DNA from: Ignavibacteria bacterium
GTDB taxonomy: Bacteria; Pseudomonadota; Gammaproteobacteria; Burkholderiales; Rhodocyclaceae
Assembly: GCA_050259835.1 (NCBI GenBank)
Contig: JBLNBJ010000212.1
Span: 5,772 to 69,771 of the forward strand
Length of the DNA: 64,000 nt
Direction: 5' to 3'
Within the stretch, counting starts at the first letter, position 1. Every line of letters starts with the position of its first letter. The notes under the pieces were generated by a model, which did not search any database, was not told the origin of the DNA, and was given only the letters and a program-made list of their open reading frames with translations. Both the position numbers and the translations under genes were made by a program. Positions 2,728 to 55,777 of this stretch are shown here, piece after piece.

Positions 2728-3897
2728 ATGGCATCGAGCACAAGCAGCGGCTGCGTTGCGTCCGGAGCCCCGGCCGCATCGTCGGACGGGAGCGCAGCCT
2801 TCCGGGTGCTGCGCGACGAGATCCTCGACGGCCGCACGCGCATCGTCGGCTACCGGTTTCGGCTGGAGCCGAGCGGTCCCGAAGGAAGGCAGGATGCCGC
2901 GGCCAAGCGGGAGGCGCTGCGTGCGGACAATCTCGCGGCTTTCGTGCATCAGCGCATCGCCATCGTGCCGATCAGCGTCAAGGACTGGCATGCGGCGGAC
3001 TTCCGCGAGTTTGCTTCGCCCAACACGGTGTTCCATCTCGGCCTGGCGCGCGAGGACGATGCGGCGGCCTGGCAGCTCGCCATCGATGCCATCCGGGCGA
3101 GCGGCGCCGCCCTCGCGCTCGACTGGACGCTGGTCGAGTCCGGGCATGGCGATGCGCTGGGATCCGCCGAACTGGTGTTCGTCAGGCCGTCGGAGTACTC
3201 GCCCGAGACGCTGCGCCGCATCGTCGAGGAACTGCATGCGCGCTACCCGGGCACCCGCATCGCGGCCGACGGCATCGGCAGCTGGAGCGAATACCGCGCT
3301 TGCCTCGCCCTGGGCGCCCACTATGGCCTCGGCAGCTTCACCGCGACGCCCTACGTCGACGACGAGATCCAGCGTCAGCAGGTGCTCAACAACGTGCTGG
3401 ACAACAAGCTGGTGCAGTTCTACTGGTATCGCGTGTTCGAGTGCGGCTGCGAATCGATCGATCGCGACCACCAGGCGCTGTTCGCCTTCGCCACGGATCT
3501 GCTCAACGCCATCATGGCGAGCAAGCCGAAGCGGAAGCTCGCTGAAATGGTCGATCAACTCCTCGTCAAGGCGACCGAGCACTTCCAGCACGAGGAGGCG
3601 GTGCTGCTCGCCGCCGGTTACCCGCGTCTCGAACACCATGCCGAGGTCCATCGCGAGCTGGCGGCGCGCGCCGGGCGCCTGGTTGACGACTTCAAGGCCG
3701 GCCGGGCCGAGATCGGCGCGGTGTTCCAGTTCCTGGCCCAGGACCTGATCGTGAACCACATGCTGGGGGCGGACCGCGACTTCTTCCCGCTGTTCCTGCA
3801 GCCGCGCAAGCGCGTCGTCGTCGCGACGCTGGCCAACGGCAAGGGGCCGGCCTGCCCGCTGCCGGCCGCTACGCCGTCGCCGCGCGTGACCCTGTAG
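2728..3897 (+). CDS. Two-domain protein: degenerate EAL-like N-domain fused to a bacteriohemerythrin-like C-domain
   Basis: GAGGAG lies 6 nt before ATG 2728. The N-domain begins like an EAL domain ('RDEILDGRTRIVGYRFRL'), but EAL is replaced by YRF and no DDFG or E-x-x-E motif is visible. The C-domain has 'ESIDRDHQALF', 'HFQHEE', 'HHAEVHREL' and 'VNHMLGADRDF', the hemerythrin His/Glu/Asp ligand pattern. Confidence 0.7.
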   Translation: MASSTSSGCVASGAPAASSDGSAAFRVLRDEILDGRTRIVGYRFRLEPSGPEGRQDAAAKREALRADNLAAFVHQRIAIVPISVKDWHAADFREFASPNTVFHLGLAREDDAAAWQLAIDAIRASGAALALDWTLVESGHGDALGSAELVFVRPSEYSPETLRRIVEELHARYPGTRIAADGIGSWSEYRACLALGAHYGLGSFTATPYVDDEIQRQQVLNNVLDNKLVQFYWYRVFECGCESIDRDHQALFAFATDLLNAIMASKPKRKLAEMVDQLLVKATEHFQHEEAVLLAAGYPRLEHHAEVHRELAARAGRLVDDFKAGRAEIGAVFQFLAQDLIVNHMLGADRDFFPLFLQPRKRVVVATLANGKGPACPLPAATPSPRVTL

Positions 3898-3903
3898 CGG
3901 CGC

Positions 3904-4557
3904 CTACTCGTCGCTGACGACGATGAGGTGCACCCGGTAGGGGCCGTGTGCGCCGAGCACGATGGTCTGCTCGATGTCGCCGGTGCGCGAGGGGCCCGAA
4001 ACGAAGTTGACGGCGCGCGGCAATTCGCCCAGTTCCTGCCGCATCAGGTTCCAGGCGTCTTCCATGCCGGCAACGACACGCGAGGCTTTGACGACTGCAA
4101 TATGGGTTTCGGGCAGCAGGCTGACGGTGGCCGGCGTATCCGCGCCCGACAGCAGCGCCAGGGTGCCGGTCTCGGCGATCGCGCAGAAGCTGCCCGTGAT
4201 GCCGACGAGGTCGGCATCGACGGCGGGGCGTGCCGCCATCGTGATGCCGGCTTGCTCCCAGGGCAGGCCGGCGAGCTGCGGCCAGCAGACCCCCGTCGTC
4301 GTAAGCTGCAGCGAGGCGAGGTAGCGCGCCGCGGCGGCCGGCACCTCCGTCATGCTCGCCACGGTGTCGACGCTGCTGGCCATCCTGAGCGACTTCTCGC
4401 AGAACAGCGCAACGAGATCGCCGCCCACCTCAGGACGCGGCCCTTCCGGATGGCGCGCCAGCCAGCCGTCGATATCGGCACCCGCGGCCGGTGCGTTGGC
4501 GGCGTCGCGGCCGAGGCGGCCGCGCACGCGATTCAGTATGTCGTCTCGGGAATTCAT
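3904..4557 (-). CDS. lutC: Lactate utilisation protein C (LutC/YkgG, LUD domain)
   Basis: 217 aa. The C-terminal 'VSGPSRTGDIEQTIVLGAHGP..VHLIVV' is typical of LUD-domain LutC proteins. ATG 4557 lies 1 nt after the stop of the upstream dehydrogenase gene. Confidence 0.75.
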   Translation of the reverse strand: MNSRDDILNRVRGRLGRDAANAPAAGADIDGWLARHPEGPRPEVGGDLVALFCEKSLRMASSVDTVASMTEVPAAAARYLASLQLTTTGVCWPQLAGLPWEQAGITMAARPAVDADLVGITGSFCAIAETGTLALLSGADTPATVSLLPETHIAVVKASRVVAGMEDAWNLMRQELGELPRAVNFVSGPSRTGDIEQTIVLGAHGPYRVHLIVVSDE

Positions 4558-4558
4558 G

Positions 4559-5518
4559 TCAGGCCACCCGGTTTACGCCTTCGCCGTTTGCGAAAGCCTC
4601 GATATTGTGGATCAACTGGTCGGCCAGCGCCTGCATGGCGTCGCCGGAGGCCCATGCGACATGGGGCGTCAGCAGGAAGTTCGGCAGCGCCAGCACCTCG
4701 GGGGCGAGCAGGGGATTGCCTTCGCGCGGGGGTTCCTTGGACAGCACGTCGAAGCCGGCGCCTGCGATCCAGCCCTCCGTGAGCGCGCGCACCAGCGCGG
4801 TTTCGTCCACCAGGCCGCCGCGCCCGGTGTTGATGAGGATGGCGCTGCGCTTCATGGCGCGCAACTCGGCTTCGCCCACCAGGCCGCGCGTAGCGTCGTT
4901 GAGCGGGCAATGCAGCGATACGACGTCGGCTTCGGCAATGACGGTCTCGAACGGAACGTGGCCGTCGCGCACCGTGGTGGCGCCCTTGCGCTCGCTCCAC
5001 AGGACGCGCATGCCGAAGGCCTGCGCCAGCCGCGCCACGCCCTGCCCGAGCGAGCCCCGTCCGACCAGCCCGAGCGTGGAACCATGCAGGTCGCGGATCG
5101 GATGGTCGAAGAAGCAGAACATCGGCGCTTCCTGCCACTTGCCGGCGACGATGTCGGCCCGATAGGCGAGCAGCTGGCGGCGCAGCGCCAGCATCAGCAT
5201 CATGACGTGCTCGGGCACGGTGCGCGCCGCATAGCCGGGGATGTTGCAGACAGCCACGCCGTGGCTGCGGCACCAGGCGATGTCGATGTTGTCGGTGCCG
5301 GTGGCGGCTTCCGCGATGAGCTGCAGTTGCGGCAGGCGCGCCAGCAGTTCGCCGCGCAGCGCGACCTTGTTGGTGATGGCGATGGTGGCGTCCTGCAGCC
5401 GCTCGAACACCTCGTCGGGCGCGGTCTTCGGGTACTCGCGCCATTCGTGCGCGAAGGCCGGGCGCCGCACCTGGGCGCGGATGGAATCGCTCTCGAGGAA
5501 GACGACGCGATGCGTCAA
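4559..5518 (-). CDS. D-isomer-specific 2-hydroxyacid dehydrogenase (glycerate dehydrogenase/hydroxypyruvate reductase-like)
   Basis: 'GLVGRGSLGQGVARLA' NAD fold, 'INTGRGGLVDE', 'DVLSKEP', 'LLTPHVAWAS'. The only in-frame start giving a full-length protein is TTG at 5518 (LTHRVVFLESD), which overlaps the TGA of the upstream gene (TTGA). Confidence 0.8.
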   Translation of the reverse strand: MTHRVVFLESDSIRAQVRRPAFAHEWREYPKTAPDEVFERLQDATIAITNKVALRGELLARLPQLQLIAEAATGTDNIDIAWCRSHGVAVCNIPGYAARTVPEHVMMLMLALRRQLLAYRADIVAGKWQEAPMFCFFDHPIRDLHGSTLGLVGRGSLGQGVARLAQAFGMRVLWSERKGATTVRDGHVPFETVIAEADVVSLHCPLNDATRGLVGEAELRAMKRSAILINTGRGGLVDETALVRALTEGWIAGAGFDVLSKEPPREGNPLLAPEVLALPNFLLTPHVAWASGDAMQALADQLIHNIEAFANGEGVNRVA

Positions 5519-7869
5519 TGCACGCGGTTCCGGATCATCAGGCCCACCTCGTCGGCTTCGATCGGGCGGCAGAAGAAATAGCCCTGGGCGTCGCAGCAGG
5601 CGTGGTTGCGCAGGAACCAGAGTTGCTTTTCGGTCTCGACGCCTTCGGCGACCACGCGCAGGTTCAGGCTGTTCGCCACCGCGATGATGGCGTTCGAAAT
5701 CGCCTGGTCGTTGGCGTCGGTGTCGAGGCCTTCGACGAAGGAGCGGTCGATCTTCAGCGTATCTACCGGCAGGCGCTTGAGGTAGCTCAGCGACGAGTAG
5801 CCCGTGCCGAAGTCGTCGATCGACAGCCGGATGCCGAGCGACTTGAGCTGCCAGAGGATGTCCATGACCTCCTTGGCGAACTGCATCACCATGCTCTCGG
5901 TTAGCTCGATTTCGAGCCACTGCGGGGCCAGGCCGGTCTCGTCGAGGATTTCGGCGACGCGTTCGGCGAAGCGCGGATTGCGCAGTTGGCGCACGGACAT
6001 GTTGACCGCGACGCGCACCGGCGCGAGGCCCAGCTTCTGCCAGGCCACGTTCTGGCGGCATGCTTCGCGCAGCACCCATTCGCCGATGCTGCCGATGAGG
6101 CCGGAATCCTCGGCCACCGGGATGAAATCCGCCGGCGGGATGTCGCCGCGCGTCGGGTGGTCCCAGCGCAGCAGCGCCTCGAGTGCGACGATGCGGCCGG
6201 TTTCGATCTCGATCTGCGGCTGGTAGACGAGGCGCATTTCGTCGCGCTCCAGCGCGCGGCGCAAGCCGTGCTCGAGCTCGAAGACATCGCGCGGCTGGCC
6301 TTCGTGGCCCGGCCGGTAGAACTGGTAGTTGTTGCGGCCGGCTTCCTTGGCGCGGTACATCGCGATGTCGGCATGCTTGACGAGCGTCTCGACGTCCTCG
6401 CCCGCCAGCGGATAGACGGCGATGCCGATACTGGCGCCGATGACCAACTCCTTGTCCTCGAGATGGAAGCTCCTCGACATGCTGTCGATGATCTTCTCGG
6501 CGACGTTGGCCGCGCCGGCCGGGCCGGCGACTTCAGGCAGGATCACGGTGAATTCGTCGCCGCCCAGGCAGGCCACGGTGTCCTGCTCGCGCACGGCGCC
6601 GCTGATGCGTTCGGCGGCAAGCTGCAGCAACCGGTCGCCGGCGCGGTGGCCGAGCGTGTCGTTGATCAGCTTGAAGCGGTCGAGGTCGAGGAACAGCAGG
6701 CCGACGCCGGTGCCGCTGCGCTTGGCGTGCGCCATCGCGTGGCGCAGACGGTCGGTGAACAGCACGCGGTTGGGCAGTTCGGTCAGCGCGTCGAAATGCG
6801 CGAGGTGGTGGAGGCGCTCCTCGTTTTCCTTGACGACGCTGATGTCGGAGAACACCGCGACGTAATAGACGATGCAGCCGCTGGCGTCGCGCACCGCGCT
6901 GATGTGCAGCCACTCCGGATAAACCTCGCCGTTGCGGCGGCGGTTCCAGATCTCGCCCTGCCACTGACCGGTGACGACCAGCTCGTTCCACATGGCGTCG
7001 TAGAAACTCTCGTCGTGGCGTCCGGATTGCAGGATGCTGGGGTTCTTGCCCATCACCTCCTGCGGCAGGTAGCCGGTCACGGCGGTGAAGGCGGGATTGA
7101 CGGAGATGATGTTGCCCACGCCGTCCGTCACGAGGATGCCTTCCTGCGTGTTCTGGAATACCTTGTCCGAAAGCTGCAGCCGCTGCTCGGCGCGGCGCCG
7201 TTCGCGGATGTCGGTCATCAGGAAGAGCAGGCCATCGGGGCTGCCGTCGCGCGCATTGAGCGGCGCGGCATGCATGGCGACCTCGACGCGTTCGCCGTCC
7301 TTGGTCTGGCGTACGGTCTCGAAATCGGCGACGACGCGGCCGCCGGAGATCTCGCCGGAGAGGCGCTCGAAATCCGGCCACTGGTCGCTGCCGAGCAGCG
7401 GGCAGCGCATGCCGAGGACCTCTTCGGCGCGCCAGCCGAACATGCGCTCGGCGGCCGGGTTCCACAGGCGCACCGTACGGTCGGGCGAAAGCGCGATCAG
7501 CGCGACCGGCAGCGAGTGCACCAGCGAGGCAAGCAGTTCGCCTTCCTTCTGCAGCGCCTGGCGCATGCGCAGCGAGGGCGTGATGTCGCGCAGCACGGCG
7601 ACATAGGCGGGCGCACCGGCCCATTCGGATTGCGCCACCCGCATCTCCGCCAGACCCCAGCCGCCGTCGGCCTGCGGGATCTCGATTTCCGTCGATTCGC
7701 CGGCGGCGACCGGGAAGCCGAAGTTGCTGCCGGTGAGCTCGGTGTCGGCGCAGCCGAACAGCATGCCGCTGGCGCGATTGGCGAAGCGCACGAAGCCGTC
7801 GCCGTCGACGACCACGATGCCGTCGGGCGCGTCTTCGATCCAGCGCAGGGCCGAGGCGGGCAGCGTCAT
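5515..7869 (-). CDS. PAS-PAS-PAS-GGDEF-EAL c-di-GMP turnover protein
   Basis: 784 aa from ATG 7869 (MTLPASALRWIEDAPDGIVVVD). Three PAS-like segments are followed by an intact 'GGDEF', then 'EALLRW', 'DDFGTGYSSL' and 'KIDRSF'. The track ORF start at 8079 would overlap kaiB out of frame. Confidence 0.9.
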   Translation of the reverse strand: MTLPASALRWIEDAPDGIVVVDGDGFVRFANRASGMLFGCADTELTGSNFGFPVAAGESTEIEIPQADGGWGLAEMRVAQSEWAGAPAYVAVLRDITPSLRMRQALQKEGELLASLVHSLPVALIALSPDRTVRLWNPAAERMFGWRAEEVLGMRCPLLGSDQWPDFERLSGEISGGRVVADFETVRQTKDGERVEVAMHAAPLNARDGSPDGLLFLMTDIRERRRAEQRLQLSDKVFQNTQEGILVTDGVGNIISVNPAFTAVTGYLPQEVMGKNPSILQSGRHDESFYDAMWNELVVTGQWQGEIWNRRRNGEVYPEWLHISAVRDASGCIVYYVAVFSDISVVKENEERLHHLAHFDALTELPNRVLFTDRLRHAMAHAKRSGTGVGLLFLDLDRFKLINDTLGHRAGDRLLQLAAERISGAVREQDTVACLGGDEFTVILPEVAGPAGAANVAEKIIDSMSRSFHLEDKELVIGASIGIAVYPLAGEDVETLVKHADIAMYRAKEAGRNNYQFYRPGHEGQPRDVFELEHGLRRALERDEMRLVYQPQIEIETGRIVALEALLRWDHPTRGDIPPADFIPVAEDSGLIGSIGEWVLREACRQNVAWQKLGLAPVRVAVNMSVRQLRNPRFAERVAEILDETGLAPQWLEIELTESMVMQFAKEVMDILWQLKSLGIRLSIDDFGTGYSSLSYLKRLPVDTLKIDRSFVEGLDTDANDQAISNAIIAVANSLNLRVVAEGVETEKQLWFLRNHACCDAQGYFFCRPIEADEVGLMIRNRVH

Positions 7870-8168
7870 TCCTCCACCTCCGCCTTCGCCGGATGCAGCT
7901 CGAGGCCGGCCAGCACCTTGTCGATGTCGGCGAGGTCGCCGATGATGCGCCGCATGGGATGCGGCAGCAGCTTCTCGACCGTCGGCGTCGCCAGGATACG
8001 GTGGGCCTTCGCTTCCTCGGGGCAGGTCAGGACGTCGACGACCTCGAGCTCGTAGCGATCGGGCAGTTGCTCGTCGCACAGGCGCTGCAATTGCGCGAGC
8101 GCCTGGCGCGACCGCAAGGTGTGGTCGGTGACGTATAGCCTGAGATGGTATTGAGCTTCCCTGCGCAT
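7866..8168 (-). CDS. kaiB: KaiB-like protein (thioredoxin-like fold)
   Basis: 100 aa. 'LRLYVTDHT..S', 'LEVVDVL', 'ILATPTVEKLLPHPMRRIIGDLAD..KVLAGLEL' aligns along its whole length with cyanobacterial KaiB. GGGGGAGG RBS. Its TGA overlaps the ATG of the GGDEF-EAL gene (ATGA). Confidence 0.85.
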   Translation of the reverse strand: MRREAQYHLRLYVTDHTLRSRQALAQLQRLCDEQLPDRYELEVVDVLTCPEEAKAHRILATPTVEKLLPHPMRRIIGDLADIDKVLAGLELHPAKAEVEE

Positions 8169-8245
8169 GGCCTCCCCCAGCCTCGTTACTCTTACTTTCG
8201 TCTAGTGATTTTCGCTAGGCGGGATTGTACCGGGACGCGGTGTTT

Positions 8246-9658
8246 TCAGGCGCGCCGGCGGCGGGCGGCGTAACGCTCCCTGAACGTCTTGCCTTCGGGC
8301 GCGGGAAAGTCGCGTCCTGCCGTCCATGCGGGTGCGGCGGCGAGCACCGAAATGCGGTCGCGGCCGCCCGCCAGCCACTTGAGATAACGCGCGGCCAGCC
8401 GGGTGCCCAGGCCATAAAGCGCCGGCCGATTCGCGACCCAGGCCCAGGCCCTGAGCGCGAGGCGCTCGGTCCACGGCCGCAGCTTTTTCTCGATCTGCTG
8501 CTCGCGCAGCTTGCGCATCAGTTCCGGCAGCGGGATCAGCACGGGGCAGACGGCGCTGCACTGTCCGCAGAAGGTGGCGGCGTTGGGCAGTTCGACGGCA
8601 TTCTCGATGCCGACGTAGAGCGGCGTGAGGATCGAGCCCATCGGCCCCGGGTAGACCCAGCCGTAGGCGTGCCCGCCGATCGACTGGTAGACGGGGCAAT
8701 GGTTCATGCAGGCGCCGCAGCGGATGCAGCGCAGCATCTCGTGATAGTCGCTGCCGACGACGTCGGCGCGGCCGTTGTCGACCAGCACGAAATAGAGGTG
8801 TTCCGGTCCGTCGCTGTCGCCGGGCCGCCGCGGCCCGGTGAGCACCGAGAAGTAGTTCGAGATGGACTGGCCGGTGGCGGAGCGCGGCAGCAGGCGCATC
8901 ATCAGCGAGAGATCCTCGAGCGTCGGCAGGACCTTCTCGATGCCGGTGATGACCACGTGCACCTTGGGCAGCGTCGTGACCATGCGGCCGTTGCCCTCGT
9001 TCGTGACAAGCGCAACCGATCCGGTCTCGGCCACGAGGAAGTTGCCGCCCGAGATGCCCATGTCGGCCGACAGGAAGTGGCCGCGCAGCACCTCGCGCGC
9101 CTCGCGCGTGAGCTGCGGTATGTCGGTCTTGCGCGGCTTGTGGTGCGTCCTGGCGAAGAGGTCGGCGACTTCGCCGACGTTCTTGTGCATCACGGGCGCG
9201 ATGATGTGCGACGGCGGTTCGTTGTCGTTGATCTGCAGGATGTACTCGCCAAGGTCGGTTTCGACCGGCTGCACGCCGGCGGCGGCGAGCGCGTGGTTGA
9301 GGCCGGCCTCCTCGGACAGCATGGACTTCGACTTGGTGACCTTCTTCACGCCGTGCCGGCGCGCGATGTCGACGACGTGCCGGCAGATTTCGGCGCCGTC
9401 CTTCGCCCACAGCACCGTGGCGCCGCCGGCGGTGGCCTTCGCCTCGAAGCGCTCGAGCCAGAGGTCGAGGTCCTTCAGCACGCGGTCGCGCACGTCGCGC
9501 GCGGCGCGGCGCGTGGCTTCGAAGTCGTCGAGTTCCTTGATCGCTGCGGCCCGCGTGTCGACGAACTTGCCCTTGGCCGTGCGCAGGTTGCGCTGCAGGG
9601 CGGCGTCCGCCAGCTTGGCGGAGGCGTTGGCCTTGAAGTGCATCGAGCGGATTTCCAT
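8246..9658 (-). CDS. lutB: Lactate utilisation protein B (LutB/YkgF, 4Fe-4S + LUD domain)
   Basis: 470 aa from ATG 9658 (MEIRSMHFKAN). 'CIRCGACMNHCPVY' and 'CGQCSAVCPV' are ferredoxin-type clusters. 'LVTNEGNGRM' is the LUD core. Confidence 0.85.
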   Translation of the reverse strand: MEIRSMHFKANASAKLADAALQRNLRTAKGKFVDTRAAAIKELDDFEATRRAARDVRDRVLKDLDLWLERFEAKATAGGATVLWAKDGAEICRHVVDIARRHGVKKVTKSKSMLSEEAGLNHALAAAGVQPVETDLGEYILQINDNEPPSHIIAPVMHKNVGEVADLFARTHHKPRKTDIPQLTREAREVLRGHFLSADMGISGGNFLVAETGSVALVTNEGNGRMVTTLPKVHVVITGIEKVLPTLEDLSLMMRLLPRSATGQSISNYFSVLTGPRRPGDSDGPEHLYFVLVDNGRADVVGSDYHEMLRCIRCGACMNHCPVYQSIGGHAYGWVYPGPMGSILTPLYVGIENAVELPNAATFCGQCSAVCPVLIPLPELMRKLREQQIEKKLRPWTERLALRAWAWVANRPALYGLGTRLAARYLKWLAGGRDRISVLAAAPAWTAGRDFPAPEGKTFRERYAARRRRA

Positions 9659-10383
9659 CACTCGTCTCCGGCCAGGATCTCGGCGATATGCAGCACCCGG
9701 GTCGTCTCGTCGCCCATGCGCCGCAGCTTGCCCTCGATGTTGAGCAGGCAGCCGAGATCGCCGGCCACCACCGCATCGGCGCCGGCCGCGCGGATGTTGT
9801 CGCACTTCTTGGTCGCGATGGCGGTCGAGATGTCGCCGAACTTGACGGCGAAGGTGCCGCCGAAGCCGCAGCATTCGTCGGCGCCCGTCATTTCCTTCAA
9901 TTCCACGCCCGGCAGTTTCGCGAGCAGCTGGCGCGGCTGGTCCTTGATGCCGAGGCTGCGCAGGCCAGTACAGGAATCGTGATAGGTGACGCTGCCGGCG
10001 AAATCCCCGGGCAGCTTTTCGATCTTCGCGACGTTGACCAGGAAGTCGGTGAGTTCAAACACGCGGCTGGCCAGCGCCACGGCGCGATCGCGCCAGTCGG
10101 GGTCATCGGCGAGCAGGATCGGGTATTCGGTGTGGATCTGGTCGGCGCAGGAGCCCGACGGGGCGACGAGATAGTCGAAGGGTTCGAATTCGGCGATGGT
10201 CTTCTTCGCCAGCGTCTTGGCGGCTTCGCGGTCGCCGCTGTTGTAGGCCGGCTGGCCGCAACACGTCTGTTTCTCGGGAACCACCACCTCGCAGCCGGCG
10301 GCTTCGAGCAGCTTGAGGGTGGCGAAACCGATGCGCGGACGCATCAGGTCGACAACGCAGGTGACGAACAGGGCGATGCGCAT
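9658..10383 (-). CDS. lutA: Lactate utilisation protein A (LutA/YkgE, CCG-domain Fe-S oxidoreductase)
   Basis: Start taken at ATG 10383 (MRIALFVTCVVD). Two CCG motifs are present ('CCGQPAYNSG', 'CCGFGGTF'). The stop overlaps the lutB ATG by 1 nt. Confidence 0.85.
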   Translation of the reverse strand: MRIALFVTCVVDLMRPRIGFATLKLLEAAGCEVVVPEKQTCCGQPAYNSGDREAAKTLAKKTIAEFEPFDYLVAPSGSCADQIHTEYPILLADDPDWRDRAVALASRVFELTDFLVNVAKIEKLPGDFAGSVTYHDSCTGLRSLGIKDQPRQLLAKLPGVELKEMTGADECCGFGGTFAVKFGDISTAIATKKCDNIRAAGADAVVAGDLGCLLNIEGKLRRMGDETTRVLHIAEILAGDE

Positions 10384-10480
10384 GGGGGCCTTCGTTAATG
10401 CACTTGGAATACCGCTTGGCGGCGGCGTTTTTCGCAATGTGGCATACTAGCACCCCGCTGCAAGCCCCGAAGAATCTACT

Positions 10481-11263
10481 GTGCCGAACTCCAAGACCAC
10501 CGTCGAAGCAAAGAGCCCGATCCAGGTGATCGAGCGCATGATGAAGCTGCTCGACGTCCTTTCCTATTACCACGATCCCGTCAGTCTCAAGCAGCTTGCG
10601 CTGGAGACGGGGCTGCATCCTTCGACCGCGCACCGGATTCTCGGTGCCATGTCGGTCAGCGGATTCGTGGAGCGCGCGGAGCCAGGCACCTATCGGCTCG
10701 GCATCCGCCTGCTGGAGCTCGGCAACCTCGTCAAGTCGCGCATCAACATCCGTGATTCGGCCCTGCCGCTGATGCAGGAGCTGCACCAGACCCTCGGCGA
10801 GAGCGTGAACCTCGGCGTGCGCCAGGGCGACGAAATCGTCTACGTGGAGCGCACCTCGAGCGGCCGCTCGTCGGTGCGCGTGGTGCACCTCGTCGGCGCC
10901 CGCGCGCCGCTCCATGTGACCGCGGTGGGCAAGCTCTACCTGGTCGAGGACGGCATCGAGAAGGTTCGGGAATACGCGAAGCGCACCGGCCTGCCGCGCT
11001 ACACGCCGACCTCGATCACCACCGTGCAGGCGCTCGAGAAGGAACTGGAGCGCGTGCGCCGCCACGGCGTTGCCTTCGACAACGAAGAAATCGAGCAGGG
11101 GCTGCGCTGCATCGCCGCACCGGTTCGCGACGACACCGGCGAACTGGTGGCCGGCCTCTCCGTTTCCGCGCCGGCGGACCGCCACAATCCCGACTGGGCC
11201 GCCACCGTGCGTGCGGCCGCCGACCGCATCTCGGCCGCCATCGGATACGCCAAACCCGCCTGA
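10481..11263 (+). CDS. IclR-family transcriptional regulator
   Basis: GTG start. N-terminal wHTH ('IERMMKLLDVL...LSLKQLALETGLHPSTAHRIL') and a C-terminal IclR effector domain ('GLRCIAAPV'). Divergent from lutA. Confidence 0.85.
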   Translation: MPNSKTTVEAKSPIQVIERMMKLLDVLSYYHDPVSLKQLALETGLHPSTAHRILGAMSVSGFVERAEPGTYRLGIRLLELGNLVKSRINIRDSALPLMQELHQTLGESVNLGVRQGDEIVYVERTSSGRSSVRVVHLVGARAPLHVTAVGKLYLVEDGIEKVREYAKRTGLPRYTPTSITTVQALEKELERVRRHGVAFDNEEIEQGLRCIAAPVRDDTGELVAGLSVSAPADRHNPDWAATVRAAADRISAAIGYAKPA

Positions 11264-11483: not shown

Positions 11484-12161
11484 ATGATCCCGAGGGTTGC
11501 AGAGAGACTGTTCGGCCGCAGCGTCGCCATCGCTGCCGCCATGCCGCGTCCGGCAGCGCCGGCGGGCATTCCCACACCCACCGCAGCGCCCAAGCCCGGC
11601 GTGCTGGTCCAGCGCGAAGAGATTCTCGACGGGCGTTCGCGCATCAGCGGCTATCGCTTTCGCGCCGTGGCGCTCGAGGCCGGTACGCCGGCGACGGTGG
11701 CCGGCCGGGCCGCGGCGTTGCGCGATGACAACCTCGCCGCCTTCGCCCAGCGGCGGCTGGCGATCATTCCGCTCAAGGCCGAGGAGTGGCAGAGCGGAGA
11801 ATTCCGGCCCTTCGTCACGTCGAACACGATCTTCGAGGTCGAGGTGCCGTCCCCTGGCGGCGATGTCGCGGCCTGGCAGCAGTGCGTCAGGGACATGAAG
11901 GCCGACGGCGCCCGGGTGGGCTTCGACAGCGTGGTGGCGACGCCGCGGCTCGCCGTGGCACTCGAGCTGGCCGACGCGATCTTCGTCAAACCGGATGATT
12001 ACTCCCAAGAGGGACTGGCGCGCGCGATGACCGGCCTGCGTGAGCGCGACCCCGCGCCCACGATCGTCGTCGACGGCATTCACACCTGGGACGATTTCCG
12101 TTCCTGCGTGGCGATGGGCGCCGAGTACTGCCTGGGCAGCTTCGCCGCCGAGAGCGCGTGA
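11484..12161 (+). CDS. Stand-alone degenerate EAL-like domain protein (paralogue of the N-domain of 2728..3897)
   Basis: ATG 11484 is preceded by GGAG. 'REEILDGRSRISGYRFRA' aligns with 'RDEILDGRTRIVGYRFRL', and the similarity continues for about 190 aa ('LRDDNLAAFAQRRLAIIPL' versus 'LRADNLAAFVHQRIAIVPI'; '...CLGSFAA' versus '...GLGSFTA'). Catalytic EAL residues are absent. Confidence 0.6.
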   Translation: MIPRVAERLFGRSVAIAAAMPRPAAPAGIPTPTAAPKPGVLVQREEILDGRSRISGYRFRAVALEAGTPATVAGRAAALRDDNLAAFAQRRLAIIPLKAEEWQSGEFRPFVTSNTIFEVEVPSPGGDVAAWQQCVRDMKADGARVGFDSVVATPRLAVALELADAIFVKPDDYSQEGLARAMTGLRERDPAPTIVVDGIHTWDDFRSCVAMGAEYCLGSFAAESA

Positions 12162-12168
12162 GCCGGCA

Positions 12169-13110
12169 ATGAGCCTCGTATCCGTCGCCCCGGCCGACCT
12201 CGCCGTCGGCATGCCGCTGCCCTGGATGCTGCAGGATCAGGACGGCAATGTGCTGATGCGCGAGGGTGAGGTGCTGCAGAACGACGAGCAGCTCCAGACT
12301 CTCCTTGCCGCCAATCCCCTGCGCAAGCTGACCTGGAATTCCGGCGCCGCCGATTCGTCGGAAGAGGAAGGCGGCGGCGAGATCGACGAGGCCACCGACG
12401 CGGCCCTCGCTGCGGACGCCAGCGACAGCCAGTTCACCTTCCAGGACATGCGGCTGCGCGTCGGCGACCGGCTGCAATTGCAGCCGCCCGCGACCGTGAG
12501 CCTGGAGCGCTTCGTCGTCAAGCTGATCGGCTGGGTCGATAACGTCAGCGTGCTCGTCACGGCGCCGATGGCAAATGGGCTGCGCGTCCCGCTGCGCGAG
12601 AACGACAGCATCGTCGCGCGCATCTTCGCCGGCCAGAAGGCTTTCGGCTTCAGCAGCACCGTGGAACGCGTCTGCAAGATTCCCTACGACTACCTGCATC
12701 TCTCGTTTCCGGCGAAGGTGCAGGGCTCGGTGATCCGCAAGTCGCCGCGCGTGCGCACCAAGATCATCGCCTCGGTGGCGAATCCCGACGCCAGCGCGGC
12801 GGCGGAGCGCCAATCGGGCATCATCGTGAACCTGAGCGCCGATGGCGCGCTGCTGAAGGCGCGCCAGCCCCTGGGAGAGAAGGGCAACCGGCTGCAGCTG
12901 TCGTTCCGCGTGAGCCTGCACAAGGTGGACGCCTACCTCACCATCAGCGCGGTCGTGCGCAGCGCCTTCCCAGATGAGGAGAAGGAGCGCGACAGCGGGG
13001 TGATGTTCAATCACGGCCTGCAGTTCCAGGACCTGGCCGCGAACGATACGGTGATCCTGCAGAGCCTGATCTACCACCAGATGATCGAGCATCCCCACAC
13101 GCTGACCTGA
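12169..13110 (+). CDS. PilZ-domain c-di-GMP receptor (YcgR-like PilZN + PilZ)
   Basis: ATG 12169, 7 nt after the upstream stop. PilZ signature 'RKSPR' (RxxxR) followed by 'NLSADG' ((D/N)xSxxG). Confidence 0.75.
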   Translation: MSLVSVAPADLAVGMPLPWMLQDQDGNVLMREGEVLQNDEQLQTLLAANPLRKLTWNSGAADSSEEEGGGEIDEATDAALAADASDSQFTFQDMRLRVGDRLQLQPPATVSLERFVVKLIGWVDNVSVLVTAPMANGLRVPLRENDSIVARIFAGQKAFGFSSTVERVCKIPYDYLHLSFPAKVQGSVIRKSPRVRTKIIASVANPDASAAAERQSGIIVNLSADGALLKARQPLGEKGNRLQLSFRVSLHKVDAYLTISAVVRSAFPDEEKERDSGVMFNHGLQFQDLAANDTVILQSLIYHQMIEHPHTLT

Positions 13111-13118
13111 ACGGCGCC

Positions 13119-14297
13119 ATGCTCAAGAAGATCACGGTGGCGCAGCTCAGGACAGGCATGTACGTGCATGACCTGAACTGCGACTGGACGGATCACCCTT
13201 TCCTGCGCAACCAGTTCCTCGTCGAGGACGAGGCCATGCTCGGCAAGATCCTCGCGGCGCCGATACCCGAGGTGTGGATCGACACGGATCGCGGTCTTGA
13301 CGTGGCGCCGACGGCGACCAGCCCGGAGGCGCCCGCCGCTTCGTTCACCTCCCCGGCGGATCCCATCGCCGTGCCCGATCTCTCTGCCGAAGTGCAGCGT
13401 GCGCGCAAGCTCCACCGCGAGGCGAATCGGCTGGTGTCCGACCTGCTCGCCGATGCGCGCATGGGCAAGCAGCTGCAGGTGGAGCGCTGCGAGCCGGTCG
13501 TCGAAGGCATCCTGGACTCGATCTTCCGCAAGCCCGATGCGCTCCTGCCGCTGGCGCAGGTGAAAAGCCGGGACGAATACACCTTCCAGCATTCGGTGGC
13601 CGTGGCGGCCCTGGCGGCCGCGTTCGGGCGCACCCTGGACATGTCGCGCGAGACGATCAAGGAGCTGGCGATCGGCGGGCTGCTGCACGACGTGGGCAAG
13701 GCGCTGGTGCCGGACGCCATCCTCAACAAGCCGGGCAAGCTCTCCGAGGAGGAATTCGCGGTGATGAAGGGCCATGCCAGCCACGGCGCCGAGCTGCTGC
13801 GGCAGACGCCGGGCATCAGCGAGATCGCCTTCGCCGCCGCGGCCGAGCACCACGAGCGCTTCGACGGCACCGGGTATCCGCGCGGCCTCAAGGGCGACGG
13901 CATCAGCATCTACGGGCAGATGCTCGCCATCGTGGACGTCTATGACGCGATCACCTCGTTGCGCGTCTACCACAAGGGGATGCCGCCGACCGAGGCGCTG
14001 CGCAACATGTTCCAGTGGAGCAAATGCCATTTCAGCCCGTCACTGGTGCAGGCTTTCATCAAGGGCATCGGCATCTATCCGGCCGGTTCGCTGGTGCGCA
14101 TGGAGAGCGGGCGCATGGGCATCGTGCGCGAAGTGGTGCCCGAGCAGCTGCTGCAGCCGGTGGTGAAGGTGTTCTTCGACGCCGACAAGCGCTGTTACGT
14201 GCCGCCGGAAATCGTGGCGCTGGCGGCCTCGGGCGACAAGATCGTCGCCCACGAGTCGTTCGAGAAGTGGAACATCGACCAGGCCGACTGGCTGTAG
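13119..14297 (+). CDS. HD-GYP c-di-GMP phosphodiesterase
   Basis: 'LLHDVGK', 'HHERFDGTGYPRGL' and 'DVYDAITS'. The N-terminal 'VAQLRTGMYVHDL' segment is typical of HD-GYP sensory N-domains. Starts 8 nt after the PilZ gene. Confidence 0.9.
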   Translation: MLKKITVAQLRTGMYVHDLNCDWTDHPFLRNQFLVEDEAMLGKILAAPIPEVWIDTDRGLDVAPTATSPEAPAASFTSPADPIAVPDLSAEVQRARKLHREANRLVSDLLADARMGKQLQVERCEPVVEGILDSIFRKPDALLPLAQVKSRDEYTFQHSVAVAALAAAFGRTLDMSRETIKELAIGGLLHDVGKALVPDAILNKPGKLSEEEFAVMKGHASHGAELLRQTPGISEIAFAAAAEHHERFDGTGYPRGLKGDGISIYGQMLAIVDVYDAITSLRVYHKGMPPTEALRNMFQWSKCHFSPSLVQAFIKGIGIYPAGSLVRMESGRMGIVREVVPEQLLQPVVKVFFDADKRCYVPPEIVALAASGDKIVAHESFEKWNIDQADWL

Positions 14298-49218: not shown

Positions 49219-52200
49219 TTAGTGTCCCATGGCCTTTATGGCCTTGGTGCGCACGACCTGCGTGACGTCATCTGCGCAGCCATTCTGCTCGGCCTTATCA
49301 AGAATACCGACGGCCTCGCTGGCCCTGTTCTGCGAAATCAGCCAGCGAGCTTCGTCGTTGTAGAACGCGGGATTCCGGCTGTTGGCGGAGATGCGTTCGC
49401 GCCGTAGGCGAGAGGCAGTCTCGCCGTCGCCAAGTTGTTCGAGGGCTATCGCTCGGACGGAGAGCGTAGAGTCGGTGGCGCTGCCCACTTGTTCCACTTG
49501 ATCGAGAATGGTGATTGCTTCAGAAGGTTTGCCTCGGTCTATGAGCCAGCGCGCTTCGTCATTGAAGAGCGCAGCATGGCGGCTGCCGGCGCTAATGCGT
49601 TCGCGCCGTAAGCGGGATGCGGCCTCGCCGTTTCCGAGGCGCTCAAGGGCAGTTACTCGGACGGTGTGCGTGAAGTCGTTGACGCAGCCGGCCCGTTCAG
49701 CCTGATCGAGAACCGCTGATGCTTCGCCGCTCTTGCCCTGATCGATGAGCCAGCGGGCATGGTCGTTGTAGAACGCGACGTGGCGGCTACCCGCTGCAAT
49801 ACGGTTGAGCCGCAAGCGCGAAGCTGCCTCTCCATCGCCAAGTTGCTCGAGACAGCTTGCTTGCACCGTCAAGACATGGTCGTTCAGCGCACTGGGGTTG
49901 CTCTCGGCTGCGACAGTTAGGGCATCGAGGAACTCTCGAATTGCCACTTCACCGGCCTCTTGGCTGGCACGTCCCCAGTCGGCCCAATAGGGGGGGAACC
50001 CAGGGTCAAGCATGCAAGCGCGGGCGAAGCACTCGCGGGCACGCGGACTAGCCCAGCTCTCCTCCTTGGCCCAGCATTCGCCGAGGAATCGCAGAACTCG
50101 ATGGTTGTCAGGCTGAAGTCGCGACCAGTAGTCGAGTACGATCCGGTTCTTGCGGTGTTCTCCGGCTTGTTGCAGATAAGCGGATAACCGGCCGAGTCTT
50201 TGTACTACACCACCCAGATTGCTACCAAGCAGTTCCTGCGCGATTTCGGATAGCCGCTCCGATTCGCCCGCAGCAGCAAGGTGGTGCAGCGCTTCGAGCG
50301 CGCGTTCGATGTTCGGTTGGGTTACCGTGTGGCGGCTCGCGAGTTGATCGAGCCAGCATTTGGCGATGAGGCTATGCGTTGCGGTAAGCGGCGAAACGCC
50401 AGCGGCGTCGTCGTCCAGCGACGTATCGCGGAGTTGGAGGCGACGCCATTCGGAGACGAATCCGTGCAGATAGAAGCGTTCCTGGCGGGCGTCAGTAGAA
50501 AGCAGGCAGCGCCGGAACAAGCTTTGCCAAGCCCCTGCGGCGTCGAGTTCCCTTTCAAGCCTCTCGATGTGGTCGTTAGGCAGCGCATGGCGGTAGAGCG
50601 CCACCGCATCGAGGAAACGGCGTTCCCCCTCAGTCAGCACGTTATCGTAGAGATCGGCGAGCAAGCCCTTTTCAACCTCCGCGACAGCTTCCTGGCGATG
50701 GCGCTTGAAGGTTTCCAGCGGCGATTCCTTGCGACCGAGGGCGACCTGCACCAGCAGGCGGCTTGCCAGGGGGTGGGCCTGGCCGCCGTGGTCGACGCCA
50801 AGCCAGCCGTGGAGCGCGCGCAGGTCGTTGCCGCCGTAGCGCCACAGTGCCGCCTCTCCGGGCGGCGCTTGGCTTTCCAGGTAGCGTGCGAGGCTCTCCC
50901 GCTTCAGGCCCGAAATCTCGCATTCCACTGTATCGCGGCCGAGCAACCCGGGCGGAGGACGCTCCCGCATTTCCAGCACGATTCGCCAGCGGCCGCCCCA
51001 AGCCTTCAAAATGCCAAGCAGCAGAGCGGACAAGGCCGTATCTCGCCAGACGCCGTTGTGCAACAAATGCTGGGCGTTCTCGATCCAAAGCCAGAGTGGC
51101 TGTGGATTCGGATAGCGCCGCTGAAGTTCGGCGGCGGTGGCTGCTGGGGTCTCCACGGTTGGAACGTCGGGAAGCTCCTCAGTTGCGCCCATTGTGTGCG
51201 CAAGGCTGCGAAATAGGTTGGAGGCTGTGGTGTCCGGCCAGGCCGATAGACGTATGGAGTCCGACCCTGCCAAGGGGGCGAGCCGCCCGAGTTCGGCAAT
51301 CACTGTGCTCTTACCGATGCCTCGCATGCCATAGATGACGGCCGCCGTTGCATTCGTCAGGTCTTGCGATACTCGCCCGAGCAACTCGTCGCGTCCGAAG
51401 ATGCCTCTGCTTTCCGGGCTGGCGGGGTTTTCCGGTGGCGTCGCAGGCGCGGCAACCGGCGCAGCCGCATTCGGAAAAGTGGCGTACGAACGCGGGTCGT
51501 CCGCAAGTCGACTCGCAATGCGGCGCGGCAGCGGAACCGGCCACACTCCACGTGGGGCATGTTCAGCTACTGAAGCCATCTTCCAGCCGCCCTCTGCGTG
51601 GTCGAAACGATGCAGATGTACTTTGCCAACCCCTACCAGGTCAAGGCGCACCAAGTTGAAGCCGAATTCCGGTGGTGTATCCGCGCAGAGTGCGCCAGCG
51701 CGAATGATGGCATGGTTAACCCCGGGCTGTACCCACGCATCATGGCTGTGACCGTGGAGCCAGAAATCGAAGCGCGTGGTCATGCGCTTTTCCACAATCT
51801 CCCGTTCGTATTCGTTAAACCAGTCGAACGGATGGTGGATGAGTCCGATGCGCACTTGGGCTTGCTGTATCGGCTCGGCCAAGCGGTTGAATTGCCATTC
51901 GGCGCCTAACCACAGATGGCGGTCATCCTCGGGACCGGCACAAGACCAGGCCGAGTTGAAGCCGGCAATGCCGACATCCAGGCCGCTGAGGTGGACGGTG
52001 CGCTCGTACACATGCCGACCTTCGGGGTCATTCAGATGTGGAAAATGTTCAGCAACAAAGGTGCCGTAAGCATCAAGGCGGGGAATGATGGTTTCCCATG
52101 TTCGGTTGCGGCGCTCGATGGCGGCGTCCAGCCCGGCGTGCTGTTTCCGGCAGTCCTTGGCCCAATTCCTCAAGGCGCTTTGCTGCAATGCCTCGACCTG

Positions 52201-52506
52201 GGTGCGGTCGATGTCATGGTTGCCCGGTACCAAGAACATACGCTTTTTGTCGCAACCGCAAACCTGGGCCAGCCGGGTGAAGAACTTGCCGGCAGTCTCG
52301 TACTGCAGCTTCAGCGATTCTTTCTCGGAGATCTCACCGAAGGCAATGTCACCCGTGCAGAACACCAAGTCCGGCTTCGTGCCCAGATGATTGAGTTCCC
52401 CAGTCAGGTAGTCGAGGAAGCGATCCTGAATGGCATTGTCCCGCCATGCATTGGCGGGACGGAAATGGATGTCCGACAGGTGCAGCCAAGTGAGTTCCGT
52501 CTTCAT
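49219..52506 (-). CDS. Calcineurin-like metallophosphoesterase - STAND P-loop NTPase - TPR-repeat protein (1095 aa)
   Basis: - ATG 52506 (MKTELTWLHLSDIHF); in-frame ATGs at 52554 and 52578 fall inside a hairpin and are less likely.
- Five phosphoesterase motifs in order: 'LSDIHF', 'GDIAFG', 'GNHD', 'HHPFDW', 'GHSHDAW'.
- Walker A 'GMRGIGKST'; Walker-B-like 'LWLWIEN'; NB-ARC-like 'ISGLKRESLARYL'.
- The C-terminal 400 aa are TPR-like and include three 68-aa tandem repeats.
- The upstream part of track ORF 49219..54429 is an out-of-frame read-through of lpdA. Confidence 0.8.
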   Translation of the reverse strand: MKTELTWLHLSDIHFRPANAWRDNAIQDRFLDYLTGELNHLGTKPDLVFCTGDIAFGEISEKESLKLQYETAGKFFTRLAQVCGCDKKRMFLVPGNHDIDRTQVEALQQSALRNWAKDCRKQHAGLDAAIERRNRTWETIIPRLDAYGTFVAEHFPHLNDPEGRHVYERTVHLSGLDVGIAGFNSAWSCAGPEDDRHLWLGAEWQFNRLAEPIQQAQVRIGLIHHPFDWFNEYEREIVEKRMTTRFDFWLHGHSHDAWVQPGVNHAIIRAGALCADTPPEFGFNLVRLDLVGVGKVHLHRFDHAEGGWKMASVAEHAPRGVWPVPLPRRIASRLADDPRSYATFPNAAAPVAAPATPPENPASPESRGIFGRDELLGRVSQDLTNATAAVIYGMRGIGKSTVIAELGRLAPLAGSDSIRLSAWPDTTASNLFRSLAHTMGATEELPDVPTVETPAATAAELQRRYPNPQPLWLWIENAQHLLHNGVWRDTALSALLLGILKAWGGRWRIVLEMRERPPPGLLGRDTVECEISGLKRESLARYLESQAPPGEAALWRYGGNDLRALHGWLGVDHGGQAHPLASRLLVQVALGRKESPLETFKRHRQEAVAEVEKGLLADLYDNVLTEGERRFLDAVALYRHALPNDHIERLERELDAAGAWQSLFRRCLLSTDARQERFYLHGFVSEWRRLQLRDTSLDDDAAGVSPLTATHSLIAKCWLDQLASRHTVTQPNIERALEALHHLAAAGESERLSEIAQELLGSNLGGVVQRLGRLSAYLQQAGEHRKNRIVLDYWSRLQPDNHRVLRFLGECWAKEESWASPRARECFARACMLDPGFPPYWADWGRASQEAGEVAIREFLDALTVAAESNPSALNDHVLTVQASCLEQLGDGEAASRLRLNRIAAGSRHVAFYNDHARWLIDQGKSGEASAVLDQAERAGCVNDFTHTVRVTALERLGNGEAASRLRRERISAGSRHAALFNDEARWLIDRGKPSEAITILDQVEQVGSATDSTLSVRAIALEQLGDGETASRLRRERISANSRNPAFYNDEARWLISQNRASEAVGILDKAEQNGCADDVTQVVRTKAIKAMGH
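49250..49865. repeat. Three tandem 204-nt (68-aa) coding repeats in the STAND protein C-terminus
   Basis: Anchor strings atgcgttcgcgccgtaggcg (49391), atgcgttcgcgccgtaagcg (49595) and atacggttgagccgcaagcg (49799) are exactly 204 nt apart. The peptide unit is ..LE.LG.GEAASRLRRERISAGSR.AAFYNDEARWLID.GK.SEA..ILDQ.E..G... Confidence 0.85.
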
Positions 52507-52548
52507 GGCGAGGGCGTGATTCAGATTGCCGTCGATGATGCCATGAAA

Positions 52549-52583
52549 CGCCATGACGGCGAGATGGCTCGCCGCCATGACCG
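52549..52583 (-). terminator. Hairpin between the lpdA stop and the STAND gene start (possible PDH-operon terminator/attenuator)
   Basis: Arms cgccatgacggcgag / ctcgccgccatgaccg form about 11 bp with one mismatch and a 4-nt loop. The trailing U-tract on the minus strand is weak (GUUUCAU). Confidence 0.3.
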
Positions 52584-52592
52584 CCAAGCACG

Positions 52593-54383: not shown

Positions 54384-55777
54384 AGCTCGGTCCTCCGGAA
54401 GTCGGCCAGCAACTGCGCGAGGTAGGCATTGAAGCGCGTCGCCAGCGCGCCGTCGACGACGCGGTGGTCGGCGGAGAGCGACAGCGGCACCATCAGGCGC
54501 GGCACGAAAGCCTTGCCGTCCCACACCGGCTTCATCGCCGAGCGCGAGACTCCGAGGATGGCGACTTCAGGCGCGTTGACGATGGGCGAGAAGGCGGTGC
54601 CGCCCAAGCCGCCGACGCTGGAGATCGTGAAGCTCGCGCCCTGCATCTCGGCCGGACCGAGCTTGCCGTCGCGTGCCTTCTTCGACAGCTCCGCCGTCTC
54701 CTTGGCGATCTCGAGCACGCCCTTCTGGTCGGCGTTCTTCAGCACCGGCACGACCAGGCCGTTCGGCGTGTCGGCGGCGAAACCGATGTGCCAATAGCGC
54801 TTGAGCACCAGTTCGTCGCCGTCGAGCGAACTGTTGAGTTCGGGGAATTTCTTGAGCGCGGCGACCACCGCCTTGATGATGAAGGCGAGCATGGTCAGCT
54901 TGATGCCGGCCTTCTCGTTCTCCTTGTTGAGCTGGACGCGGAAGGCTTCCAGCTCGGTGATGTCGGCCTCCTCGTGATACGTGACCGCCGGGATCATCAC
55001 CCAGTTGCGCGCCAGGTTCGGTCCGGAAAGCTTCTTGATGCGCGACAGCGGCTGGCGTTCGATGGCGCCGAACTTGGCGAAGTCCACCTGGGGCCAGGGC
55101 AGAAGATTGAATCCGCCGCCGAGCGGGGCGCCGGCGGCCGGTGCAGCGGTGCCGCCGGACAGCACGCCCTTGACGTAGGCCTGCACGTCGGCTTGGGTGA
55201 TGCGGTTCTTCGGGCCGGTGCCCTTGACCTTGGCGACGTCGACGCCGAGTTCGCGCGCGAACCGGCGCACCGAGGGGCTCGCGTGCGATTTGCGTCCGTC
55301 GCTCGCTTCGATCAGTTCGGCGGGCGAAGGCATGTGGATGTCGGGCGGCGCGACCGTCGGTTCGGATTCGGTCGGCCGGAAGTCCTCCTGCAGTCGCGGC
55401 GCCGCCTGGGGTGCCGCCGCGACGGCCGCGCGCGCGGCCTCCGGGGACGGCGTCGCGGGCGGGGGCACCGCGGGCGCGGCGGCCTGCCTCGGGGCTTCCG
55501 CCGCCTTGGCGGGTTCGGCGGCGACAGCCCGCGCACCGGCCGCTTCCAGCAGGACGATCACTGCGCCCTCGGAGACCTTGTCGCCGATCTTGACCTTCAC
55601 TTCCTTCACGACGCCGGCGGACGGCGCCGGCACGTCCATCGTGGCCTTGTCCGACTCCAGCGTGACCAGCGAGTCCTCCGCGTTCACGCTGTCGCCGGGC
55701 TTGATCTGGATCTCGATGACGGGGACATCCTTGAAGTCGCCGATGTCGGGTACTTTCACCTCCGTAATGGCGGCCAT
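54380..55777 (-). CDS. aceF: Dihydrolipoamide acetyltransferase (PDH E2)
   Basis: Lipoyl domain ('[13 protein letters not shown]'), E3-binding domain ('[15 protein letters not shown]') and the catalytic 'SADHRVVDG'. Confidence 0.95.

Follow-up and report, generated by a model that had tools for sequence, protein, structure and literature searches.

A KaiB-like protein encoded with a PAS-GGDEF-EAL enzyme in a lactate-utilization operon of Rhodocyclaceae and Sterolibacteriaceae, with no kaiC nearby

KaiB is a textbook metamorphic protein, and it is understood only as a partner of KaiC. The closest described contact between a KaiB protein and a cyclic di-GMP (c-di-GMP) enzyme involves KidA of Synechococcus elongatus PCC 7942 (Synpcc7942_1859; Kim et al. 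2022), a protein with four PAS domains followed by GGDEF and EAL domains, which was the top non-KaiC interactor of KaiB locked in its fold-switched state (fsKaiB) (PMC9478674). KidA's first three PAS domains (PAS-A to PAS-C) bind directly to fsKaiB and make the clock period shorter; the authors proposed a relay from clock state to c-di-GMP and pointed to PAS genes beside kai genes in other bacteria (PMC9478674). In non-cyanobacterial genomes, De Luca et al. 2011 found that a histidine kinase or GGDEF/EAL gene comes after the kaiC-kaiB cluster in nearly every case (PMC3164672). Here, we analyze a 64,000-nucleotide stretch of contig JBLNBJ010000212.1 (assembly GCA_050259835.1), hereafter the window, in which a kaiB-like gene (7866-8168, reverse strand) overlaps the gene of a PAS-GGDEF-EAL enzyme (5515-7869, reverse strand), which we refer to as PGE. 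A preliminary description of this DNA considered such wiring uncharacterized, a view made outdated by the binding of KidA to fold-switched KaiB (PMC9478674) and by the adjacency of kaiBC and GGDEF/EAL genes described in 2011 (PMC3164672). A connection from KaiB to a PAS-GGDEF-EAL enzyme is thus known in kind. What is new is the tightly coupled, KaiC-less form of the connection, its position in a lutAB-kaiB-enzyme-dehydrogenase-lutC operon, and a set of clade-specific KaiB changes that includes the loss of D90.

The 100-residue product of the kaiB-like gene matches the Pfam KaiB profile PF07689 over its full length (profile positions 1-81 of 82; 87 bits, cut-off 27 bits; E 7e-25), which places it in the KaiB family. 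It also aligns without gaps to the solved KaiB structures 8FWJ (KaiB-RS), 1WWJ, 1R5P, and 4KSO (E 5e-20 to 1e-19), whose source organisms are Rhodobacter, Synechocystis, Anabaena, and Synechococcus. These matches bear out the full-length likeness to KaiB that had been noticed in the letters of the DNA. The protein falls below the cut-offs of the NCBIfam circadian KaiB equivalogs TIGR02654 (76.8 vs 145.3) and NF006798 (81.5 vs 110), so we treat it as a KaiB-family protein and not as a canonical KaiB.

At the junction of the two genes (7866-7869, reverse strand), the TGA stop codon of kaiB overlaps the ATG of the PGE gene as ATGA, and a purine-rich, Shine-Dalgarno-like run, GGAGGTGGAGGA, lies within the 3' end of kaiB. 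The same ATGA overlap, or a gap of 0-3 nt, is found at all 11 readable orthologous junctions in addition to that of the window. PGE itself has 784 residues in the order PAS1-PAS2-PAS3-GGDEF-EAL, as assigned by Pfam, NCBIfam, and Protein Data Bank (PDB) searches. Pfam detects the three PAS domains, the GGDEF domain (168 bits), and the EAL domain (258 bits); the best NCBIfam match, below its cut-off, is of the DibA type, and the best PDB matches are MorA (4RNH), DosP, and RbdA. The overlap, the three PAS domains, and the intact GGDEF and EAL motifs of the preliminary description are all confirmed.

The catalytic motifs of PGE are intact. The GGDEF domain (residues 357-514; 6328-6801, reverse strand) carries the active-site (A-site) motif, the metal- and GTP-binding residues, and the RxxD inhibitory site (I-site), contained in LFLDLDRFKLIND and REQDTVACLGGDEF and conserved in all orthologs. 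In the EAL domain (residues 536-769; 5563-6264, reverse strand), the complete catalytic set of EAL, N, ELTE, DDFGTGYS, KIDRSF, EGVE, and QG is invariant in all orthologs. By their motifs, both active sites look competent. PAS1 (residues 1-112; 7534-7869, reverse strand) is a short PAS domain of the type that starts genes downstream of kaiB-kaiC, and it is kept in every ortholog; a PDB search found no close solved relative. PAS2 (residues ~109-232; 7174-7545, reverse strand) is dispensable, being missing from the PGE orthologs of 657-658 residues at loci L007, L009, L027, L105, and L107. PAS3 (residues ~229-350; 6820-7185, reverse strand) resembles FAD-binding, redox-sensing PAS domains: its PDB matches include MmoS (3EWK, 95 bits) and NifL (9QQ6 and 2GJ3, 66-67 bits), and the NCBIfam nifL_nitrog match spans PGE residues 244-355. 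Comparison with the PDB matches revealed no LOV cysteine in PAS3. The likeness to MmoS and NifL suggests a redox input.

To place the locus among its relatives, we gathered 108 loci (referred to by L numbers where one has to be named) and annotated them by tblastn with the window proteins and three KaiC sequences. In a neighbor-joining tree, the window KaiB belongs to a monophyletic clade of ~17 lineages that share 64-100% identity and the signature YVTDHTLRSRQA, and all of these relatives come from Rhodocyclaceae or Sterolibacteriaceae metagenome-assembled genomes (MAGs) and metagenomes; a scan of genome contigs yielded five MAG loci. Assemblies with the module include GCA_030247725.1, GCA_040754195.1, and those with the contig prefixes DAIEEM01, DASVZD01, and JAQTNK01. 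A PGE ortholog lies directly downstream of kaiB in about 16 of the 17 lineages. In the window, both genes are part of a tightly packed, same-strand operon in the order lutA-lutB-kaiB-PGE-2-hydroxyacid dehydrogenase-lutC, and the order lutA-lutB-[kaiB-PGE-dehydrogenase]-lutC is conserved in relatives, with kaiB between lutB and the dehydrogenase/lutC genes in ~14 lineages. The pair and its junction recur in independent metagenomes and MAGs, far beyond what chance would give. At L009 and L021, the kaiB-PGE pair sits in an unrelated neighborhood without lut genes, and at L018 it lies beside iclR with lutAB missing, which indicates that the pair moves as a unit; the unrelated context at L009 argues for a functional link between the two genes. 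The dehydrogenase gene is missing at L025. In the window and ~17 related lineages, the kaiB-like and PAS-GGDEF-EAL genes are a conserved pair.

No kaiC lies within 6-10 kb of kaiB in any of the ~17 clade lineages, or anywhere in the 64-kb window. Across the window, the best tblastn E value obtained with three KaiC queries was 0.15, and a Pfam scan of ~40 window open reading frames (ORFs) gave no KaiC (PF06745) or KaiA match, which upholds the first reading that kaiC and kaiA are absent from this stretch. The adjacent kaiC that marks a KaiBC timing system is therefore lacking at these loci. In the sister KaiBs (47-60% identity), kaiC is adjacent wherever the contig reaches far enough. A search for KaiC homologs returned at least 120 matches (74-82% identity) from many phyla, none of those listed named as Rhodocyclaceae, a result that says nothing on absence.

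PAS1 provides a second link to kai loci. The next signaling gene starts with a PAS1-like domain as its first PAS domain at 16 of the 17 sister loci with the order kaiB-kaiC and at least 900 nt after kaiC (tblastn, 59-101 bits, 35-50% identity), and PAS2 and PAS3 gave no comparable matches after kaiC in the sister loci. The PAS1-like genes after kaiC encode hybrid histidine kinases (PAS1-HisKA-HATPase-REC or REC-PAS1-kinase), and at L022, from an Oxalobacteraceae MAG, kaiB-kaiC is followed by a PAS1-GGDEF-EAL gene. Judged by these matches, PAS1 is enriched at kai loci. The simplest history, and a likely one, is an ancestral kaiB-kaiC-[PAS1-output] cassette in which deletion of kaiC would have put kaiB against the PAS1 gene. 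We also looked for KaiB-PAS fusions of the Rosetta stone kind and rejected the candidates: PAS1-like proteins whose PAS domain begins at residue ~90-100 have receiver or further PAS domains at their N-termini, not KaiB.

Two further loci and several canonical ones carry related arrangements. At L047 (1-2110) and L092 (1-1148), a REC-PAS1-HisKA or PAS1 gene comes after a kaiB from other lineages (51-58% identity), and the short contigs carry no kaiC, which hints that kaiC may have been lost repeatedly and independently. An ORF of ~116 residues upstream of kaiB at both loci looked by eye like a KaiA C-terminal/RsbU_N-type domain and was dismissed, having neither Pfam nor PDB support. Genes for response-regulator-HD-GYP (HD_5) proteins are present in canonical kaiBC loci, at L012 (3244-4467) and upstream of kaiB at L066, L069, and L076. 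Because these genes recur, c-di-GMP-type outputs seem common around non-cyanobacterial Kai systems.

The clade KaiBs are under purifying selection (median pairwise ratio of nonsynonymous to synonymous substitution rates, dN/dS, 0.18 at dS ~1.1), with an intact reading frame in all clade lineages and 28 invariant alignment columns. Relative to the KaiC-linked sisters, G15D, Q16H, and P18L are fixed in the loop between β1 and α1; in the segment that forms helix α2 of the structural model described below, the clade has L52E, has lost the acidic patch at 54-56, and carries H or R in place of K57. Further fixed differences are S80A and L87A. For metamorphic KaiB, we considered the ground-state-stabilizing residues K57/58, G88/89, and D90/91. 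D90 (D91 in Thermosynechococcus) and G88 are the residue pair whose mutation is used to lock KaiB into its fold-switched form. Among the KaiC-linked sisters, D90 is conserved at 99%; the clade has A or E there and retains G88. The window protein carries the clade signature and C31, keeps G88, and has E in place of D90. Where thioredoxin has its active site, the alignment shows neither CxxC nor any other redox motif. We set aside the KaiB-RS fold-switch markers I68R/V83D/N84A, at which the clade has I/M, A, and G, a pattern that looks neither locked-fold-switched nor clearly ground-state.

An AlphaFold2 model built from the clade alignment has the thioredoxin-like β-α-β-α-β-β-α topology (mean predicted local distance difference test score, pLDDT, 74.8), and only the fold-switched topology appeared. 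In a Foldseek search, the best ranks went to fsKaiB, KaiC-bound KaiB-RS, Legionella KaiB, and KaiB-TV4, with template modeling (TM) scores of 0.64-0.71 to Legionella Lpp1115 (4KUN) and KaiB-TV4 (8UBH); ground-state KaiB (4KSO) was matched only in part, over the N-terminal 61 columns. From this model, we consider with moderate confidence that the protein is predominantly fold-switched-like.

In favor of the account given next are the adjacency of the two genes without kaiC, the presence of kaiC beside the sister KaiBs, the junction, the mobility of the pair, the kinship of PAS1 with kai loci, the KidA precedent, the predicted fold, the residue shifts, selection, and the intact catalytic motifs. 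In this best account, to which we give about even chances, PAS1 of the co-translated enzyme is bound by the KaiB-like protein, as KidA is by fsKaiB, and c-di-GMP turnover is thereby modulated, with redox sensing by a flavin PAS domain and timing set by the lut operon. The locus would then encode a sensory module of two proteins that arose from a proteobacterial KaiBC output cassette through the loss of kaiC. The KaiB-like protein would be made together with the PAS1-(PAS2)-PAS3-GGDEF-EAL enzyme, probably at a fixed ratio, would adopt the thioredoxin-like (fold-switched-type) KaiB fold, and would bind the N-terminal, Kai-type PAS1 in the way that fsKaiB does those at the N-terminus of KidA. The enzyme would thereby be shifted in its balance between c-di-GMP synthesis by GGDEF and hydrolysis by EAL, and the flavin-type PAS3 would add a redox input. 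Since the module would be transcribed within the lut operon, it would be produced when lactate or hydroxyacids are oxidized, and c-di-GMP signaling would be tied to that state. The partner-switch role suggested for the KaiB-like protein in the preliminary description is an inference, and so are a physical contact between KaiB and PAS1, the state in which KaiB folds, the direction in which the enzyme would be regulated, and independence from any KaiC.

Several observations weigh against this account. Tight packing and start-stop overlaps also occur at other junctions of the operon, and an ATGA overlap is not specific to partnership. The PAS1-like family is large and varied in architecture (2,147 cluster representatives at E<=1e-10), with none fused to KaiB, and PAS1 is not an exclusive Kai marker. 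At L016, L017, and L029, the operon reads lutAB-kaiB-dehydrogenase-lutC without a PGE gene, and the retention of kaiB there means that KaiB has value without an adjacent PGE. The flanks and downstream synteny of L016 are closest to those of the PGE-bearing L105 (LutB 92% identical), and for this reason the PGE gene was probably lost secondarily in the L016 lineage; the same likeness disfavors the alternative, prompted by the first-branching position of L016 in the tree, that KaiB was ancestral in the lut operon and PGE came later. A control AlphaFold2 run on a KaiC-linked KaiB (P0067, 3-sequence alignment) gave a C-terminal half with pLDDT 35-50 and no recognizable state, which leaves the fold call uncalibrated, and the preference of AlphaFold2 between KaiB states is disputed and unreliable for the balance of states; it is for these two reasons that we keep the fold reading at a moderate level. 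The C-terminal half of the window KaiB is very similar to canonical KaiB and highly conserved in the clade, and in solved complexes it is this half that contacts KaiC (PMC6378743). Such conservation is compatible with either structural constraint or a surviving KaiC-type partner. Lastly, a 2017 survey (Schmelling et al.) found KaiB only in genomes with full-length KaiC (PMC5520375). The term orphan, used for the kaiB gene in the preliminary description, accordingly holds locally, for the window and the ~17 lineages, and has the locus as its scope.

The survey leads to the strongest alternative, a distal kaiC. Here the KaiB-like protein would partner a KaiC encoded elsewhere in a KaiBC hourglass, and PGE would be an input or output, as KidA is or as in the L022 operon, where kaiB, kaiC, and a PAS1-GGDEF-EAL gene stand together. 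The strongly conserved, KaiC-binding C-terminal half with G88 kept fits this idea, as does the fact that KidA acts together with KaiC-bound KaiB. It has to accommodate ~17 lineages without kaiC within 6-10 kb, when the sisters have it adjacent wherever the contig is long enough, and a whole window without kaiC; the near-invariant D90 is also lost, and the predicted α2 is altered (L52E, acidic 54-56 gone). On balance, we consider a distal kaiC rather unlikely. The opposite and stronger claim is that KaiC is wholly absent from these bacteria and that the KaiB-like protein is the first of the KaiB family to work independently of KaiC, as an adaptor that uses a Kai-type PAS domain to gate a c-di-GMP enzyme. 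We entertain it tentatively and are more inclined to doubt it than to accept it. If KaiC were absent, the protein might be a free-standing fold-switch or thioredoxin-fold adaptor and, once the lactate operon is induced, might serve as a slow conformational timer.

The position of kaiB between lutB and the dehydrogenase/lutC genes in ~14 lineages, and its persistence at L016, L017, and L029 without PGE, would also fit a thioredoxin-fold accessory subunit or regulator of the lactate-utilization or 2-hydroxyacid dehydrogenase enzymes, with the c-di-GMP enzyme as a passenger. We find this improbable: the kaiB-PGE pair occurs away from lut genes at L009 and L021, no redox motif such as CxxC stands at the thioredoxin active-site position, LutABC systems in general do not need KaiB, and the kinship of PAS1 with kaiBC-adjacent PAS domains would be left unexplained. 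It could also be argued that the kaiB-like gene is a decaying remnant whose adjacency to PGE has no functional meaning, as kaiC has evidently been lost from the locus and the protein scores below the NCBIfam KaiB equivalog cut-offs. Its conservation comes close to excluding this, with intact frames and 28 invariant columns across the lineages, a median dN/dS of 0.18 (dS ~1.1), a conserved junction, and the gene present in many independent samples.

A lineage whose KaiB stays under purifying selection beside a c-di-GMP enzyme, with no kaiC next to it, offers a minimal two-protein system in which to study the effect of the KaiB-PAS contact known from KidA on enzyme activity, as well as a natural experiment on fold-switching after removal of the KaiC partner. 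It would link Kai-derived signaling, redox and lactate metabolism, and biofilm/motility control in non-photosynthetic Betaproteobacteria. Should KaiC prove absent from these genomes, a KaiB protein would for the first time have a role independent of KaiC; should a distal kaiC exist, the locus would still be a clear case, at the genomic level, of KaiB wired to a c-di-GMP output outside cyanobacteria.

The remaining genes of the operon encode a LutABC system, as identified by Pfam and synteny. The first gene, lutA (9658-10437, reverse strand; CCG domains), is followed by lutB (8246-9661, reverse strand; LUD, 4Fe-4S, and LutB_C domains) directly upstream of kaiB. After PGE come a D-isomer-specific 2-hydroxyacid dehydrogenase gene (4559-5518, reverse strand), whose likely TTG start overlaps the PGE stop (TTGA), and lutC (3904-4557, reverse strand; LUD domain), the last gene. 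An IclR-family regulator gene (10481-11263, forward strand; Pfam) diverges from lutA and is present in most relatives, including L018, which lacks lutAB. A consensus scan of the operon found neither promoter nor terminator between lutB and kaiB. The 77-nt spacer between these two genes (8169-8245, reverse strand) contains a Shine-Dalgarno-like run and a TAnAAT-like hexamer (8224-8229, reverse strand) ~56 nt upstream of the kaiB ATG, which is weakly conserved in an alignment of eight lineages and has no -35 match; the hexamer could be an internal -10 element. Rfam and tRNA scans detected no c-di-GMP riboswitch and only a distant tRNA-Pro.

Among the relatives without PGE, the KaiB of L016 (3243-3542; also L017 and L029) has Q in place of R73, a residue found in 100% of KaiC-linked sisters and 93% of the clade, at a dN/dS of ~0.2. 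L107 has a gene (4093-4506, forward strand) for a 137-residue BLUF (blue-light, FAD) protein between lutA and lutB, upstream of kaiB and the enzyme. EAL enzymes are known to have short BLUF proteins as partners.

Just past iclR, the window encodes a c-di-GMP receptor with PilZNR and PilZ domains (12040-13110, forward strand) and a phosphodiesterase with DUF3391 and HD-GYP domains (13119-14297, forward strand). The relatives carry a Peptidase_S11 gene at this position, so the two genes are a lineage-specific insertion; with the PAS-GGDEF-EAL gene, they form a small c-di-GMP island. Convergent with lutC is a gene (2728-3897, forward strand) for a 389-residue protein with a C-terminal hemerythrin domain, whose 240-residue N-terminal region has no significant Pfam match and whose 50%-identical ortholog adjoins lutC at L019. 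Farther away, a 1,736-residue protein (49219-54429, reverse strand) combines a calcineurin-like metallophosphatase domain with an nSTAND6 NTPase domain and may be a conflict- or defense-type STAND protein. NCBI gives "Ignavibacteria bacterium" as the source of the exact KaiB protein (MGE5468905.1). All close relatives, however, are from Rhodocyclaceae or Sterolibacteriaceae MAGs, and the first 16 kb, which were profiled, have a GC content of 63-70%; thus, the contig is probably mis-binned or mislabeled.

Altogether, the locus resembles several described systems in part. PGE shares with KidA the combination of multiple PAS domains with GGDEF and EAL domains that retain their catalytic residues, and one further PAS domain of KidA is predicted to bind flavin, and PAS3 of the window is similar to the PAS domains with which MmoS and NifL bind FAD. 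The likeness described here is one of architecture. Whereas kidA is not beside kaiB and its product acts on a full KaiABC oscillator, the window genes overlap, have no kaiC or kaiA nearby, and belong to a lactate operon. The GGDEF-EAL tandem, with both catalytic sites intact, is like those of MorA, RbdA, and DosP (290-468 bits for 4RNH and 9BGV; 208 bits for RbdA 5XGB), but the sensory inputs of these enzymes differ (membrane, heme). To our knowledge, none of them has a KaiB-family partner. On the KaiB side, the N-terminal domain of SasA, Legionella Lpp1115 (4KUN), and KaiB-TV4 (8UBH) are KaiB-family, protein-binding modules that stay thioredoxin-like. In SasA, the domain is part of a kinase fusion and its target is KaiC, whereas the window protein is free-standing with a predicted fold and a PAS domain as its proposed target; the Legionella KaiB differs in being encoded with kaiC. 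The nearest relatives by sequence are the non-cyanobacterial kaiB-kaiC operons (De Luca 2011; L022, L034-L075), which have the same KaiB subfamily (47-60% identity) and an output gene with a PAS1-like start (35-50%). In contrast to these, the window has no kaiC between kaiB and the PAS1 gene, its KaiB carries the clade substitutions G15D, Q16H, P18L, L52E, and D90A/E, and its output gene has gained a NifL-type PAS domain and sits in a metabolic operon.

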